Origin: Candidatus Diapherotrites archaeon CG08_land_8_20_14_0_20_30_16
GTDB taxonomy: Archaea > Iainarchaeota > Iainarchaeia > Iainarchaeales > 0-14-0-20-30-16
Reading direction: 5' to 3'
NCBI GenBank assembly: GCA_002779075.1
Contig: PEXK01000019.1
Coordinates: 1-8,681, forward strand
DNA: 8,681 nucleotides
Both the position numbers and the translations under genes were made by a program. Below are positions 80-8,681 of this stretch, piece after piece (within the stretch, counting starts at the first letter, position 1; the number at the start of each line of letters is the position of its first letter). The notes below the pieces were generated by a model. The model worked only from the letters and a program-made list of their open reading frames with translations. It was not told the origin of the DNA and made no database searches.

Positions 80-832
80 ATGCATTCACAGAAAAATAAA
101 AAGAAAAAAAGAAATATATTGAATCAGAAAGGGCAAGCAGCAGCAACAGATGCTTTAATATTTTTGTCAATTGTTGCAATTGTTTTTGTTTTAATATTAG
201 GATATTCAATGAATTATGGTTTGAGCATAATGGACAGTACGAAAAAATTGTACAACACAAATTATCATTATGCTGCTTTGAAAGCGTTTATGAGTGCAAG
301 CTATGGTAGAGATGGCAATGACCCTATGACTGCATCAGAACCAATTACTGATTCTGTTGCAACAATGATAAAGGAAGATTATGGTGCAAACGAAAAGGTC
401 TCTGTGCAAACTCAAATGGCGATGTTTGGTATTTTAGAGGAATTATTTCTGCCTTTGCCACAAAGAAGCTATCTTTTGCTTATAACACATGAAGCAAATC
501 CAACATCTGGAGGAACAGTTCTTACCCCTTTAATAGTTTTGGTTCGCGGTGTAGACGAAGATGGAATAAACAAAGATTTTATTTGCAATCCAACAGAAAA
601 TAGCCAGATAGAAGCGTTTTTGGCTAGCCATTCTTTAGATTTGCAAATTGTTGAAGGCCAGTTTATTTTTTACAGAAATGTTTTGAAATCAGATATCACA
701 AAAGAAGGCGGACAAATCTTTTTAGCAAGTTGGGTATCATTGTACAATGAAGGTAATGAGGAAAAAGGAAAAATATCAGAAGCTGATTTATTAACTAACT
801 TGGGTTGCTCGCCGCAACCTTTTAGCCCTTAG
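80..832 (+). CDS. secreted or surface protein with an archaeal class III (prepilin-like) signal peptide; remainder unrecognised
   Basis: ATG at 80, 250-aa ORF, TAG at 830-832. The N-terminus is a basic stretch (KNKKKKRN) followed by QKG|QAAATDALIFLSIVAIVFVLILG. That is Lys-Gly followed by a small/polar residue and a ~20-aa hydrophobic helix, the pattern processed by archaeal prepilin peptidases (PibD/FlaK type). No other motif recognised. Confidence 0.6.
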   Translation: MHSQKNKKKKRNILNQKGQAAATDALIFLSIVAIVFVLILGYSMNYGLSIMDSTKKLYNTNYHYAALKAFMSASYGRDGNDPMTASEPITDSVATMIKEDYGANEKVSVQTQMAMFGILEELFLPLPQRSYLLLITHEANPTSGGTVLTPLIVLVRGVDEDGINKDFICNPTENSQIEAFLASHSLDLQIVEGQFIFYRNVLKSDITKEGGQIFLASWVSLYNEGNEEKGKISEADLLTNLGCSPQPFSP

Positions 833-1490: not shown

Positions 1491-1562
1491 CGCCTCGGCC
1501 GGGAATTGAACCCGGATCTGAACCGTGACAGGGTTCGATCATAACCATTAGACCACCGAAGC
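1491..1562 (-). tRNA. tRNA-Asp (anticodon GTC), 72 nt, no encoded CCA, no intron
   Basis: The reverse complement reads GCTTCGG TG GTCT AATGGTTA TGAT C GAACC CTGTCAC GGTTC AGAT CCGGG TTCAATT CCCGG CCGAGGC G. The acceptor stem is 7 bp with one U3:G70 wobble. The D-arm carries G10:U25, which is typical of tRNA-Asp, and GG in the loop. The anticodon stem is a perfect 5 bp and the loop is CU-GUC-AC. The T-arm is CCGGG/CCCGG with a TTCAATT loop. The discriminator is G. Confidence 0.92.
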
Positions 1563-3503: not shown

Positions 3504-5657
3504 ATGGTGGCAGAAAAAACAGCAATTTTGAAAGTAATGGAAGCAGACCCTAATTTAGTAGGAAAAAAAGTTGCTGCCCTGGATAATGAAACAAGGCAAC
3601 ATTTGGGTTTGAGCCACGAAGATTATATTTTAATTAAAGGAAAAAAAGATGCGTTAGCAAAAATTTGGCCTGGCAGACCATCAGATGAAGGAGAAAGCCT
3701 TATAAGAATCGATAGCTTTACGCGAAAGAATGCTGGTGTTGCAATTGGCGATACTGTTATTGTGAAAAAAGCAAGTCTGCAAACTGCAAAAAAAGTAACC
3801 TTTGCCCCAATTCAAGAAATACACACAAAATTAGGACAATATACAAGAATGGTGAAAAAAACCTTTCTTAGCAAACCTATGATTAATGGCGAAGAAGTAA
3901 TGTTTGCTGTTTTTGGCAACCCCATTTGTTTAATTGTTCAATCAACTAAACCCAAAGGTCCTGTTTTAATTTCTGATGAAACCGAAGTAGAAGTTTTGAA
4001 TGATCCTGTTGACCCCAATACAGCAAATGTTTCACGAGTGAGCTATGAGGACATAGGGGGAATAAAAAAACAATTGACTAAAATAAGAGAAATGATTGAG
4101 ATTCCCTTGAGGCATCCAGAACTCTTTAGACGTTTAGGAGTTGAGCCACCAAAAGGTGTTTTGCTTTATGGACCGCCAGGAACAGGTAAAACAATGGTTG
4201 CAAAAGCAGTTGCAACAGAATCTGGTGCACATATAATAACAATAAAAGGGCCAGAAATTATGAGCAGGTATGTTGGCGGTGCTGAACAAAAAATAAGAGA
4301 ATTGTTCAAAGAAGCACAGGATAATGCACCAAGCATAATTTTTATTGATGAAATTGATGCAATAGCGCCGATAAGAGAAGAGGTTGCAGGGGATGTTGAA
4401 AAGAGGGTTGTTGCACAGCTTTTGAGCTTAATGGACGGTATGGAAGCACGGGGAGATGTTATAGTTATAGCAGCAACGAATAGGCCCAATTCTGTTGATA
4501 TGGCTTTGCGCAGGCCTGGAAGGTTTGATAGAGAAGTGGAAATAGGACCACCAGATAGAGAAGGCAGAAAGGAAATACTTGAGATTATGACAAGAAGTAT
4601 GCCTATGGACAGAGATATTGATTTGGATAAAATAGTTTCGCAAACACATGGTTTTGTAGGTGCTGATATAAGTGCTTTAGTAAAAGAAGCAGCTATGCAA
4701 ACAATTAGAAGAGTTTTGCCAGACTTGAATTTGAGTTCTGAAGAACTTCCTTTAGAGGAATTAGAGAAAATTACACTTGAAAAAGAAGATTTTGAAAAAG
4801 CATTGCAAGAAGTAAACCCATCTGCATTAAGAGAAGTATTTGTTGAAGTTCCTAATGTGCGCTGGGAAGATGTTGGCGGTTTAGATACAATAAAAAATGA
4901 TTTGAAGAAGATGGTTGAATGGCCACTTAAATATAGTGAAAGTTTTGATAAGGCAGGGATACCACCAACAAAAGGGATTTTGCTTTATGGTCCGCCAGGA
5001 ACAGGAAAAACAATGCTTGCCAAAGCAATAGCAAATGAATGCGAGGCAAATTTTATTTCTATTAGAGGTCCTGAAATATTTAATAAATGGCTGGGAGAAA
5101 GTGAGAAAAAAATTAGAGATATATTCCAAAAAGCAAAACAGACAAGCCCATGCATTGTTTTCTTTGATGAGATTGATGCAATTTGCCCAAGACGTCCAAA
5201 TGATACGAATCAAACGACTTACAGAGTTGTAAATCAGCTTTTAGCAGAAATTGATGGAATGAGTTCATCAAAAGGCGTTGTTTTTTTAGCAGCAACAAAC
5301 AAACTTTATAATGTTGACACTGCTTTGATGCGACCCGGAAGAGTTGATATGCTTTTGTTTGTTGACAATCCTGATGAAAAAGGAAGATTGGATATTTTGA
5401 AAAAATTGTCAAAGAATATGCAATTGAAAACCCCAACAGATTTAGAAATTGTTGCTAAAGATACAAATGAATATTCTGGTGCAGATTTGAATGCTGTTTT
5501 GCGTGAAGCTGCATTTATTGCTTTGGAGAAAGGAGATATGAAACCAACAGCTATAACTCTTGATGATTTTAAAGAAGCAATAATTAAAACAAACGAATAC
5601 AAAACAAAAACAGAGAAAGAAGATAAAAACACAGACGATACAAATTATATACGATAG
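3504..5657 (+). CDS. cdc48: Cdc48/VAT/p97-type AAA+ ATPase (N domain + D1 + D2)
   Basis: 717 aa. The N-domain motif is [25 protein letters not shown]1 has Walker A GPPGTGKT (aa 223-230, nt 4170-4193), Walker [11 protein letters not shown], pore loop MSRYVGG, and [28 protein letters not shown]2 has Walker A GPPGTGKT (aa 496-503, nt 4989-5012), pore loop NKWLGESE, Walker [11 protein letters not shown], and [19 protein letters not shown]. The family signature is unambiguous. Confidence 0.97.
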
Positions 5658-6288: not shown

Positions 6289-6771
6289 ATGGTAGATGAA
6301 AAAGTATTGTATGAAGGAAAACCAAGTTATAAGTTGTTTTGGTCATTTTCAATAAGCTGGATTTTGATTTTTATTTTAGTATTTTTGATTTTTGTTTTGA
6401 ATCCTCTTATTATTGCATTTTCTACAGGCCTAACAAACACAGCATGGACAATTTTAATTTGTTATATTCTTATTTGTGCAATAATTCTTGTTTATTTACT
6501 GTTTTTGGTTAAAACATATAAATACAAAATAACAGACAAAGGGATTTATTTCTCTGGCGGTATATTAACAAAAAGAGAAAAGTTTGTTCCTTTTTTCAAA
6601 GTAACAAATGTTGATGTTTTGCAAACTTTTATTGACCAGCTTTTAGGAATATCTAAATTAGGGTTTCAAACAGCAGGCCAAGGAGCTGCAAATATGCCTG
6701 AAATAACCTTTCGTGGTTTAGAAAACCCAACAAAACCAAAAGAAATAGCATTAAAATGGCTCACTAAGTGA
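6289..6771 (+). CDS. membrane protein with bacterial-type PH domain (bPH_2 / YdbS-like, PF03703)
   Basis: 160 aa. The layout is the N-terminal EKVLYEGKPS motif, two TM helices, then YKYKITDKGIYFSGGILTKREKFVPFFKVTNVDVLQTFIDQLLGISKLGFQTAG. That sequence fits the bPH_2 consensus (Y.it..ri....G.l.r....ip...iq.v.v.q....r.lGl..l.i.Tag). Confidence 0.8.
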   Translation: MVDEKVLYEGKPSYKLFWSFSISWILIFILVFLIFVLNPLIIAFSTGLTNTAWTILICYILICAIILVYLLFLVKTYKYKITDKGIYFSGGILTKREKFVPFFKVTNVDVLQTFIDQLLGISKLGFQTAGQGAANMPEITFRGLENPTKPKEIALKWLTK

Positions 6772-6790
6772 GAGCTTTTAAGGACTTTTA

Positions 6791-6811
6791 GTTAAGTTTA
6801 TAAAACTTAAC
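6791..6811. terminator. perfect 9-bp hairpin GTTAAGTTT-ATA-AAACTTAAC, 20 nt after the bPH_2 gene stop
   Basis: Read directly. Its position suggests a 3'-end structure for the plus-strand operon. No strong T-run follows, so terminator function is uncertain. Confidence 0.3.
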
Positions 6812-6840
6812 GAAATGGCAATGAAATATATCGAAAAAAC

Positions 6841-6913
6841 AACACATTAAACAGAGTGTATAAGATTTCTGTCTTAGAGTATAAAACTTAGAACACAAGG
6901 TTCAAAGTTTTTT
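6841..6913 (+). repeat. unit A of a degenerate repeat: AACACAT ... AGTGT-ATAAG ... CTTA-GA-ACAC hairpin + T6
   Basis: AACACAT lies at 6841-6847. A hairpin forms from 6856-6864 (GTGT A TAAG) and 6887-6896 (CTTA GA ACAC). A T6 run lies at 6908-6913 on the plus strand. The unit aligns block by block with unit B. Confidence 0.5.
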
Positions 6914-6920
6914 ACTTATT

Positions 6921-6955
6921 GTTAGAAGCTCTTTGGAATACAAAGCCATTCTAAC
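6921..6955. other. two-tier hairpin GTTAGAA..CTTTG-GAATA-CAAAG..TTCTAAC
   Basis: The outer 7 bp pair 6921-6927 with 6949-6955. The inner 5 bp pair 6931-6935 with 6941-6945, and the loop is 5 nt. It lies between repeat units A and B. Confidence 0.45.
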
Positions 6956-7037
6956 ACATGATGTGAAATCTTTTACAAAGTGTCATAAGTTTTGTGTAAA
7001 TAAAACCTTAATGACACAATGTTTTTGTGTATTTTTT
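6953..7037 (+). repeat. unit B of the degenerate repeat: AACACAT ... AGTGTCATAAG ... CTTAATGACAC hairpin + T5/T6
   Basis: AACACAT lies at 6953-6959. A long imperfect hairpin spans 6980-7017 (GTGTCATAAGTTTT / AAAACCTTAATGACAC, 14 bp with two bulges). T5 (7022-7026) and T6 (7032-7037) follow on the plus strand. Confidence 0.5.
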
Positions 7038-7039
7038 AG

Positions 7040-7083
7040 TAGAATAAAATATAAAAATAGAAAAGGGTGATTTTTAATCACCC
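7040..7083 (-). terminator. hairpin GGGTGATT-AAA-AATCACCC followed by a T-rich tract on the minus strand (terminator and/or IS right-end hairpin)
   Basis: An 8-bp perfect stem (7065-7072 / 7076-7083) with a 3-nt loop. In minus sense it is followed by TTTTCTATTTTTATATTTTATT. It lies 196 nt downstream of the tnpB stop. Confidence 0.5.
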
Positions 7084-7310
7084 ATCTTATTTAAAACTTA
7101 GATTTACTTTTTTTTCTTTTTTACAGCCTTCTTTTTCTTAGCCATTTTTCATCCCTCACAATAAACACTAACAACTTTTTGTTAATTATCAGTAATATAT
7201 ACAGAATATATAAATACTTTTCTTTTTTGGATAAACATGTCAACTATCAATTAATGAATTAATCGGCTTGTAACTCTATTAGGCTACATTTGGGTGATTG
7301 ACTGCACCCT
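7050..7310 (-). ncRNA. candidate TnpB omega-RNA (reRNA) region; extent approximate
   Basis: In IS200/IS605 elements the omega-RNA overlaps the tnpB 3' end and runs to the right end. Here that interval holds a GGGTG/CACCC hairpin at 7292-7309, a minus-strand TTTATATA box at 7207-7214, and a related terminal hairpin at 7065-7083. No covariance or expression evidence is available. Confidence 0.3.
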
Positions 7311-8364
7311 GCACAAAATCAGATATACCAATTCTGGCGATGTTTCTACTTGCATTTAAATCTGCGTGTAATTCATAACCACACTCATTGCAATGGAATA
7401 GATTATTATTACGATTATTTTTATCTGTAAATCCACAGTGTGAACACTCTTGACTCGTATATCTGGGATTAATATATATTACAGATTTACCTAATCTTTC
7501 TGCTTTATATTCCAAGAAACTCATTAATTTTCTAAAAGACCAATTACCTATATTTTTTCTCATAGTTTTATTTAATCTTTTAGTTTTTATATGTTTTATA
7601 TTTTCCATAGCAAAAAGAGTATATGGCAAGTTAACTATTTGTTTACTTATTATATGATTTACATTTTTAACAAAACGGTTCTCTTTTCCACTAATTAATT
7701 TAAGTTTTCTTTTAGAGGACTTAGTGCCTTTAGATTGTAAATCACTTTTTTGTTTTTGGTATTTTCCTTTAATATTTCTTAACTTCTTTGAATTAAAGAA
7801 AATATTGTTTGATAATGTTGCAATATTTTTAATTCCAACATCTATACCTAATACTTTAATTTCTTTTTGCTTTTCTACTGGTGATTGCTCCATTTGTAAA
7901 TTAAGAAAATAATTTTTATATTTTCTTCTTATTAATTGAGCATTTGTATATTTCCAATCTTTATATTTTAAATAATAATCTGCAACGTTTAAAGGCAGTT
8001 TTAATCTACCAAACATAGTATTTATTGATATTTTTTTCTTATCAAACATTACAGAAAGACATCGTTTATCATATCTAATTGAAGAGTATTCTTTTTTTAT
8101 TGGTTTAACTTTAAATTTTAATGATTTCAACATATCGCTTGCATGGTCTCTTGCTGTTTGAACCATAGCACTAGAAAAACGAGGATATTTTTCTCTAATT
8201 AGTTTGTAAGTTCCATAATGTAATTTATTCTTATTAAATGTGTGATTTTCAAAACCATAATTAATAATCTCTTGACATATTTTGTTGTAAGTAGATACAG
8301 TAGAATTAAGATTGTCATTTTTTCCTAATTTTATTATTATGGTTGTAACTTGTTTATTAATCAC
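7279..8364 (-). CDS. tnpB: TnpB (IS200/IS605 OrfB-type RuvC nuclease, RNA-guided endonuclease family)
   Basis: 361 aa from GTG 8364; no in-frame ATG lies near the N-terminus. RuvC-I is LGIDVGIKN (D175). RuvC-II is FAMENI (E254). The zinc ribbon is TSQECSHCG...FHCNECG. RuvC-III is HADLNASRNIA (D335). Order and spacing are typical of TnpB. Confidence 0.93.
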   Translation of the reverse strand: MINKQVTTIIIKLGKNDNLNSTVSTYNKICQEIINYGFENHTFNKNKLHYGTYKLIREKYPRFSSAMVQTARDHASDMLKSLKFKVKPIKKEYSSIRYDKRCLSVMFDKKKISINTMFGRLKLPLNVADYYLKYKDWKYTNAQLIRRKYKNYFLNLQMEQSPVEKQKEIKVLGIDVGIKNIATLSNNIFFNSKKLRNIKGKYQKQKSDLQSKGTKSSKRKLKLISGKENRFVKNVNHIISKQIVNLPYTLFAMENIKHIKTKRLNKTMRKNIGNWSFRKLMSFLEYKAERLGKSVIYINPRYTSQECSHCGFTDKNNRNNNLFHCNECGYELHADLNASRNIARIGISDFVQGAVNHPNVA

Positions 8365-8427
8365 ATATATTATTTACCAGATTAAGTTTAAAAACATATA
8401 TATAGTATATTATTTAAGCAAATTCAT

Positions 8428-8447
8428 CCAACCATTGAAATGATTGG
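8428..8447. other. imperfect hairpin CCAACCAT-TGAA-ATGATTGG (candidate IS left-end subterminal hairpin)
   Basis: An 8-position stem with one C/A mismatch and a 4-nt loop. It contains TGATTG, which also occurs at 7295-7300 inside the tnpB-3' hairpin motif. Confidence 0.35.
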
Positions 8448-8463
8448 TTTTCTTTACACGAGA

Positions 8464-8471
8464 TTTATAAA
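8464..8471 (+). promoter_or_regulatory. candidate TATA box (TTTATAAA) for the 8493.. gene, with leaderless spacing
   Basis: It starts 29 nt upstream of ATG 8493, and no SD lies between. Confidence 0.4.
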
Positions 8472-8492
8472 GTTTAACAAATATATTATATT

Positions 8493-8681
8493 ATGGCAAG
8501 AGAACCATTACAAAGAAAAAAATTTTTGAAACCTAATTATGATCCTACTGCTAAATTGTCTAGATTAAGAAGAATACCCTCTACAAGAAATTTAGCAGAA
8601 GGGGTTAAAAATTTTATCAGAACCAATCCATTACTTGTATTAAGAGCATCTAGACGAATTGAAACATCAAAGGGCCCCAAA
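8493..8681 (+). CDS. hypothetical basic protein, 5' part only (runs off the window end)
   Basis: ATG at 8493 opens 63 codons to the window edge: MAREPLQRKKFLKPNYDPTAKLSRLRRIPSTRNLAEGVKNFIRTNPLLVLRASRRIETSKGPK. It is not in the ORF track, presumably because there is no stop. It is Arg/Lys-rich and may bind nucleic acid or the ribosome, but the family is not recognised. Confidence 0.55.
   Translation, partial: MAREPLQRKKFLKPNYDPTAKLSRLRRIPSTRNLAEGVKNFIRTNPLLVLRASRRIETSKGPK

Follow-up and report, generated by a model that had tools for sequence, protein, structure and literature searches.

The DNA analysed here, referred to below as the window (the whole stretch of 8,681 nt), belongs to a DPANN archaeon. 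By exact-protein look-up, its TnpB protein is identical to one deposited as PIU22453.1 for Candidatus Diapherotrites archaeon CG08_land_8_20_14_0_20_30_16. The gene for this protein lies on the minus strand and starts with GTG, as opposed to ATG in relatives. Its identification as tnpB from the sequence alone was borne out on three counts: the product matches the Pfam families OrfB_IS605 and Cas12f1-like_TNB (PF01385 and PF07282, respectively), the residues D175, E254, and D335 are unchanged across all aligned relatives (protein alignment A1), and the solved-structure (PDB) relatives of the 361-aa protein are Cas12f and TnpB. No tnpA (Y1 transposase) gene was found in the window or its contig or beside the relatives, based on Pfam, ORFs, and the relatives' contigs. 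The element is tnpB-only (IS1341-like) and, lacking tnpA, non-autonomous. The rest of the window offers an ordinary archaeal context: a tRNA-Asp(GTC) gene at 1491-1562 (-), a Cdc48/VAT-type double AAA ATPase gene at 3504-5657 (+), and an ORF at 80-832 (+) whose product has an N-terminus like an archaeal pilin-type signal (KGQAAATDALIFL...).

Around the 3' end of tnpB, the sequence-only reading had drawn attention to two hairpins, a TATA box, and a T-tract, all of which are present. Hairpin 1 consists of GGGTG (7292-7296), an 8-nt loop, and CACCC (7305-7309), and lies within the last tnpB codons (QGAVNHP). Hairpin 2 is a perfect 8-bp stem made of GGGTGATT (7065-7072), TTT, and AATCACCC (7076-7083), 196 nt past the tnpB stop (7279-7083). 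The TATA box TTTATATA is on the minus strand at 7214-7207, preceded by GAAAAGTA, and the minus-strand T-tract TTTTCTATTTTTATATTTT follows directly after hairpin 2. The features that we assigned to the element itself are listed below.

8467-8471 (-): TTTAT, the TAM / insertion-site motif, immediately 5' to the left end
8365-8466 (-): left end, whose subterminal hairpin is CCAAUCAUU-UCA-AUGGUUGG (8447-8428), together with a GATGAAT motif and the tnpB TATA region, from alignment A5 and comparison by eye
7279-8364 (-): tnpB ORF, 361 aa, GTG start, with an intact zinc ribbon (CxxC...CxxC) and intact RuvC residues D175/E254/D335
7239-7342 (-): omega-RNA scaffold, 104 nt, a full-length covariance-model match
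7311-7338 (-): stem 0 (GCCAGAAUUGG / CUGAUUUUGUGC), which precedes the core scaffold and lies within the codons ARIGISDFV, from RNAalifold on alignment A3
7292-7309 (-): stem 1, which is hairpin 1 (GGGUG, loop CAGUCAAU, CACCC), with the proposed pseudoknot loop bases GUCAAU (7302-7297)
7270-7287 (-): short stem GUAGC / GUUAC, whose 8-nt loop holds the tnpB stop codon, from alignments A2, A3, and A6
7248-7265 (-): stem 4, the right-end hairpin of 7 bp, with a UUCA loop (7258-7255) at -20 to -17 from the scaffold end
7239-7247 (-): right-end terminus AUAGUUGAC, with the TTGAC boundary known from three element pairs and GUUGAC complementary to the stem-1 loop GUCAAU
7219-7238 (-): predicted guide AUGUUUAUCCAAAAAAGAAA, made of 16-20 nt of flanking DNA, as expected from where the right end falls and from what is known of TnpB

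The loci compared with the window comprised 23 metagenome loci, extra contigs of close and distant relatives, and the same locus from other samples. A scan of a genome collection with the single TnpB protein as query returned zero relatives. With the TnpB alignment as query, it returned one full-length relative that was already in the set and two short fragments only.

The right end of the element was located by comparison with relatives. By blastn, the DNA match of about 20 relatives to the window breaks off at 7284 on the 3' side. When read directly past this point, all relatives continue with ...TTACAAGCC, a variable hairpin, and (N)N(A/G)TTGAC, beyond which their sequences differ. In three pairs of loci, one and the same element has different flanks (L010/L013, L017/L022, and L012/L018), and in each pair the right end comes immediately after TTGAC. 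The window reads GAGTTACAAGCC-GATTAATTCATTAATTG-ATAGTTGAC here, with 7239 as the last base, 40 nt past the tnpB stop. The right end of this single copy is thus placed at 7239 via the relatives. A TTGAT at 7246, seven bases earlier, would be a weaker alternative right end. Some relatives show a different arrangement of gene and terminus: the tnpB ORF spans the entire omega-RNA and the right-end hairpin (L025 2548-2659 and L029 2215-2341), and its stop codon is the TGA within the terminal TTGAC.

At the left end, the layout TTTAT, approximately 11-15 nt, AAAGAA, hairpin, and GATGAAT is common to the window and its relatives. The TAM position in relatives is occupied by TTTAT in 15 of 16 cases and by GTTAT in one; TTTAT was found in L049 too. 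With the TAM at 8471-8467, the left end starting at 8466, and the right end at 7239, the predicted extent of the element is therefore 7239-8466. Excision would leave an empty site with the predicted junction GGATAAACAT joined to ATAAAGTTTAAC. Exact-protein look-ups with TnpB and the neighbouring bPH_2 protein yielded neither an empty site nor a second copy among the 10 places listed (of 14 contigs carrying the protein). Each of the 10 is this one locus, and the element there is either present or cut off.

The hairpins at the two ends of one element resemble each other in relatives. In the window, the left-end hairpin at 8428-8447 (CCAATCATT-TCA-ATGGTTGG) is similar to the L025 right-end hairpin, and the window's own right-end hairpin (7248-7265) has an AT-only stem, which may reflect drift of a transposase recognition site. 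Another TATA box, TTTATAAAG, was observed at 8464-8472 (+), about 25 nt upstream of a leaderless-looking gene at 8496. It is made up of the TAM (ATAAA) and the three terminal bases of the IS at its left end. As this box is partly derived from the element, the insertion appears to lie between two divergent host promoters and to supply part of one.

We assessed the RNA with a covariance model built from 17 relatives, with the window left out. Its match in the window, at 7342-7239 (-), scored 92.7 bits (E 2.9e-23), covered model positions 1-144, and had a 41-position gap in the distal stem. Under the same model, hairpin 2 scored 5 bits (E 1.7). Three distant relatives were picked up as well, from a Micrarchaeota MAG, a Euryarchaeota MAG, and Methanosarcina mazei, all ending with TTGAC. 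The best result of an Rfam search of 6760-7350 at permissive thresholds was MicX (24.6 bits versus a gathering score of 75), which matched the terminator hairpin only.

Run unguided on MAFFT alignments, RNAalifold recovered the 5' stem, hairpin 1, a long stem around the distal hairpin, and the right-end hairpin. On MAFFT alignment A2, 98% of cells were paired, versus 29-45% with slid partners. Two-sided pair changes numbered 17, versus 4-7 in the slid controls, and none of 500 shuffles reached the observed values. When the three distant relatives were added (alignment A6, 21 distinct sequences), two-sided changes were seen in 28 pairs versus 7-10; A6 was fitted to the covariance model and is hence biased in its favour.

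Individual stems differed in their support. Stem 0 had two-sided changes in seven of 11 pairs once distant relatives were included (model-fitted A6). Stem 1 was paired in 100% of cells in A2 and in 99% in the model-fitted A6, with compensatory changes in three of its five pairs (GU/GC/CG, UA/CG, and UA/GC) and covariation across 21 homologous elements. The right-end hairpin showed compensatory changes in seven of 10 pairs in relatives; this covariation could reflect recognition of single-stranded DNA by TnpA in addition to an RNA function. The stem at 7270-7287 is the base of a long stem that bears an extra distal hairpin of about 40 nt in the closest relatives. This distal hairpin is absent in the window, and the scaffold is equally short in L049 (349 aa) and L053 (366 aa), so the short scaffold is a natural compact form. 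A fresh 40-nt deletion had been considered as its origin, and that idea was toned down given these two short natural forms.

The loop bases GUCAAU of stem 1 and the terminal (A/G)UUGAC were complementary in all but one of the 21 distinct sequences, which has a C-A exception (99% of cells; model-fitted A6). Three pairs of the proposed pseudoknot are invariant, and its single two-sided change, from U-A to C-G, occurs in two sequences. We infer that the last six bases and the stem-1 loop form a pseudoknot, as in ISDra2 TnpB. A conserved internal omega-RNA promoter within tnpB was not evident in the alignment of the relatives.

Taken together, we consider it highly probable that the locus holds a tnpB-only element of the IS200/IS605 type (IS1341-like) at 7239-8466 (-), with an omega-RNA at about 7342/7338-7239, and that the remaining noted features form a host unit. 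The proposal that an omega-RNA scaffold overlaps the 3' end of tnpB and includes hairpin 1 is upheld by conservation with compensatory changes. The two-hairpin module proposed along with it survives in part: hairpin 1 is scaffold stem 1, whereas the element does not include hairpin 2, the TATA box, or the T-tract. The alignment of homologues that had been suggested as a check revealed covariation in hairpin 1 but no hairpin 2 in any homologous element.

The layout of the predicted RNA resembles that of the ISDra2 omega-RNA/reRNA of Deinococcus radiodurans, known from cryo-EM (PMC10097598). The ISDra2 scaffold has 116 nt, four stems, a pseudoknot of -5..-3 with -105..-103, a UUUA tetraloop at -20..-17, and a distal stem that is disordered and dispensable (PMC10097598). 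Both RNAs overlap the tnpB 3' end, reach the right end, and take (here, would take) their guide from the flank. Both have a multi-stem scaffold, guide-proximal bases complementary to a loop near the 5' end, and a terminal-hairpin tetraloop at -20..-17 (UUUA in ISDra2; UUCA/UUUA here). In the window, the distal portion of the middle stem, which ISDra2 can do without, is missing. The two RNAs differ in that no similarity is detectable between their sequences and no Rfam family matches, in TAM (TTTAT here versus TTGAT), in the right end (UUGAC here), and in scaffold size (about 100 nt here and 144 in the closest relatives versus 116). Unlike ISDra2, the element has no tnpA and a DPANN archaeal host, and the ISDra2 TnpB protein is only distantly related (E 1.5e-10).

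Two archaeal systems were also compared. The reRNA of the Sulfolobus islandicus IS605 TnpB7 goes with the TAM TTTAA, its guide starts directly after a conserved terminal UUCAC, approximately 113 nt of coding-derived RNA are required, and a terminator after the guide raises activity (PMC11043419). An archaeal TnpB, a T-rich 5-nt TAM, and a right end in a conserved pentamer are found in both cases (PMC11043419), whereas the TAM (TTTAT), the pentamer (UUGAC), and the lineage are different here, and the present family is known from sequence alone. Haloarchaeal IS200/IS605 omega-RNAs / sense-overlapping transposase RNAs (PMC12558985) are likewise archaeal and derive from tnpB 3' ends. They were seen in transcriptomes of cultured haloarchaea (PMC12558985), whereas the evidence here comes from sequence comparison.

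By analogy with characterised TnpB systems, transcription would run out of the element through its right end, and the first 16-20 flank bases, from 7238 to about 7219, would become the guide. RNA-loaded TnpB would then cut DNA in which the TAM TTTAT is followed by the guide sequence. Such a target of TAM and guide is the empty site that remains after excision, so cutting would favour retention of the element. The expression and processing of the omega-RNA, the length of its guide, and cleavage are all predicted on the same analogy.

We then considered whether the copy in the window is still functional. It could have the same identity and be a decaying relic, with a recognisable scaffold but no longer capable of either moving or RNA-guided cutting. 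Variants of the same locus in other samples bear on this: 7641 G>A introduces a nonsense codon into tnpB (Q242*, in L030), and 7329 C>A replaces an invariant glycine (G346C, in L033, L034, and L037) and breaks a stem-0 pair. Given these population variants, the copy may be decaying. The single copy seen, the lack of tnpA both in this contig and beside relatives, the GTG start, and a right-end hairpin that has drifted to an AT-only stem and is no longer like the left-end hairpin all point the same way. However, the window's own ORF is unbroken and retains every catalytic and zinc residue, every stem still pairs, and the covariance-model match is full length. The short scaffold also occurs in the widespread relatives L049 and L053 and is thus not damage in itself. 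Moreover, a further variant of this locus, 7297 A>G, is synonymous and turns a U.G pair of the proposed pseudoknot into C-G. We regard decay as quite possible, although we would stop short of calling it probable.

A minimised yet active system is a more tentative proposal, which we consider rather doubtful. It would combine a TnpB of 361 aa, a scaffold of about 100 nt (about 71 if stem 0 can be spared) that lacks the 40-nt distal hairpin and keeps all core helices, and the TAM TTTAT, in an omega-RNA family common to DPANN archaea, the Euryarchaeota MAG, and Methanosarcina mazei and outside curated RNA libraries. A by-product of the analysis is an alignment and a covariance model of this archaeal omega-RNA family, which is missing from curated libraries, and its compact natural variants may be of use in mining small TnpB editors. 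Overall, this is an ordinary TnpB element that raises no new biological question.

The region that holds hairpin 1 is coding, its peptide motif (...IARIGRTDFLQGxVNxPNV) is highly conserved, and subterminal DNA hairpins are recognised by IS200/IS605 transposases. Hairpin 1 and the adjacent stems might accordingly be conserved merely as peptide code or as transposase DNA hairpins and not as RNA, which we judge very unlikely. In stem 1, covariation links the third base of a Gly codon (GGU/GGC/GGG) to the second base of the variable codon that it faces. The change at the Gly third base is synonymous, and protein selection therefore neither predicts nor explains it. In addition, five separate helices covary, non-coding ones included, TnpA-type recognition is limited to subterminal hairpins, and the layout reproduces that of the solved ISDra2 omega-RNA.

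The TATA box, hairpin 2, and the T-tract span 25-190 nt outside the right end: the TATA box lies 25 nt beyond the element, and hairpin 2 is 156 nt beyond 7239. As the transposon ends at 7239, these features would belong to a neighbouring host gene. We compared the flank with all fetched loci (blastn) and obtained a match to a related archaeon (L040) with 74% identity over 118 nt (E 2e-7). The match covers the promoter and the start of a gene for a 53-aa Lys-rich protein (MVVKKKAKKAAVKK...), with no tnpB nearby. The homology of the cassette is based on this one other locus (L040 4530-4860 (-) versus window 7040-7223 (-)). The corresponding features in the window are as follows.

7207-7223 (-): putative host promoter, BRE/TATA AGAAAAGTATTTATAT(A), with an identical 16-mer upstream of the L040 gene for the 53-aa Lys-rich protein
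7104-7145 (-): putative host mini-ORF MAKKKKAVKKKKK, 13 codons, Lys-rich, preceded by GAGG, the positional homologue of the 53-aa ORF in L040
7046-7083 (-): hairpin 2 (7083-7065) and T-tract UUUUCUAUUUUUAUAUUUU, which would terminate the host mini-gene; the homologous sequence downstream of the L040 gene is GGGTGGAGAAATTCACC-TTTTTTTCTATTTTTT

The window and L040 have in common the 16-mer AGAAAAGTATTTATAT, a 5'UTR hairpin (TAACAAA...TTGTTA), a Shine-Dalgarno site, the ATG, the stop context AAGTAAAT, and a GGGTG...CACC hairpin followed by TTTTCTATTTTT. The alignment from promoter to ATG scored 104 versus 60.7 +/- 5.3 for shuffles, and that of stop, hairpin, and T-tract scored 76 versus 42.8 +/- 5.6. 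In order, the cassette consists of a promoter, a 5'UTR hairpin, a Shine-Dalgarno site (GAGG), a 13-codon Lys-rich ORF, hairpin 2, and oligo-T, and the homology indicates that these parts form one small host transcription unit. The untranslated parts were better conserved than the length of the ORF (13 codons in the window versus 53 in L040). For the 53-aa Lys-rich protein, zero homologues were detected, and Pfam gave only a sub-threshold HC2 (histone H1-like) match.

Hairpin 2 resembles archaeal hairpin-plus-oligo-T terminators in having a G+C-containing stem followed by runs of 4-5 T, and in lying past a short ORF that has a BRE/TATA promoter and a Shine-Dalgarno site of its own. It differs in that its function is predicted, with an ORF of 13 codons here versus 53 at one homologous locus. 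Hairpin 2 is terminator-like on both strands, with three such sites versus 0.4 expected. The predicted terminator provides the first good oligo-T signal for read-through from tnpB and probably stops that transcript as well. Among the fetched loci, the hairpin 2 pattern GGGTGATTNNNAATCACCC is confined to contigs of this one locus, and the GGGTG...CACC core appears, from the L040 comparison, to be inherited from the host terminator.

The sequence-only reading had instead proposed a module at 7310-7040, with hairpin 2 as its terminal stem-loop, the TATA box as an internal promoter, and the guide beyond 7050. Apart from the existence of the features, it could draw on the 8-mer GGGTGATT in both hairpins and on the T-tract after hairpin 2. 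Hairpin 2 had been taken as the right end, but the scaffold and the element stop at TTGAC (7239); the element copies end before 7083, at a TTGAC that aligns to 7239 in all relatives. Nothing like 7238-7040 was found in any of more than 20 homologous elements, the covariance model stops at 7239 and ignores hairpin 2, and the unit at 7223-7040 is homologous to a host gene cassette without tnpB. Rather than being internal to the omega-RNA, the TATA box would be a signal of the host mini-gene. No RNA made of scaffold and guide can arise from a promoter that lies downstream of the scaffold. An RNA of 7185-7050 is plausibly real, but given the homology of the cassette to the L040 host unit it would be the mRNA of the mini-gene and not an omega-RNA.

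The two hairpins had also been tied together as a duplicated motif. This tie does not extend to relatives, whose hairpin 1 carries GGGTT, GGGCT, or GGCTT. The 8-mer GGGTGATT occurs three times versus 0.16 expected from shuffles; however, two of these copies are the arms of one palindrome, so there is a single independent recurrence (P about 0.15), and we regard the 8-mer common to both hairpins as coincidence. TTTATATA occurs three times versus 1.66 expected, a count matched by 45 of 200 shuffles and so not significant alone. On this evidence the proposed module is extremely improbable. The main value of the analysis lies in the correction: predicted boundaries at 7239-8466, a predicted guide from 7238 to about 7219, and a TAM TTTAT. 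A conspicuous hairpin, TATA box, and T-tract beside tnpB can be host signals and not a guide RNA.

It is hardly credible that hairpin 2, with the sequence around it, is what remains of a different IS200/IS605 end or of a miniature derivative element: perfect palindromes are typical of such ends and the 8-mer is shared with hairpin 1, but neither TTGAC nor a TAM-like motif lies beside hairpin 2, which is unlike any left or right end of the family and, with the following TTTTCTATTTTT, is homologous to the L040 host-gene terminator.

Two further candidates were dropped. A direct repeat (7068-7093 / 8351-8376, 81%) was judged to be chance. The region 6772-7238 was considered as a decayed tRNA-Thr-ED gene, which occupies that slot in relatives; tblastn was empty and synteny stops right after bPH_2.

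Finally, the plus strand at 6797-7040 has neither an Rfam match nor an ORF. It carries, in this order, a TATA-like TTTATAAA at 6797, approximately 215 nt of strongly folding sequence, and a T-tract (7023-7038). Three copies of the motif TAAAACTTA(GA) are present (at 6801, 6882, and 7092). The approximately 215 nt after 6797 fold much better than shuffles, with z of -5.8 on the plus strand and -4.9 on the minus strand, and 6797-7040 (+) is possibly an unannotated structured RNA.
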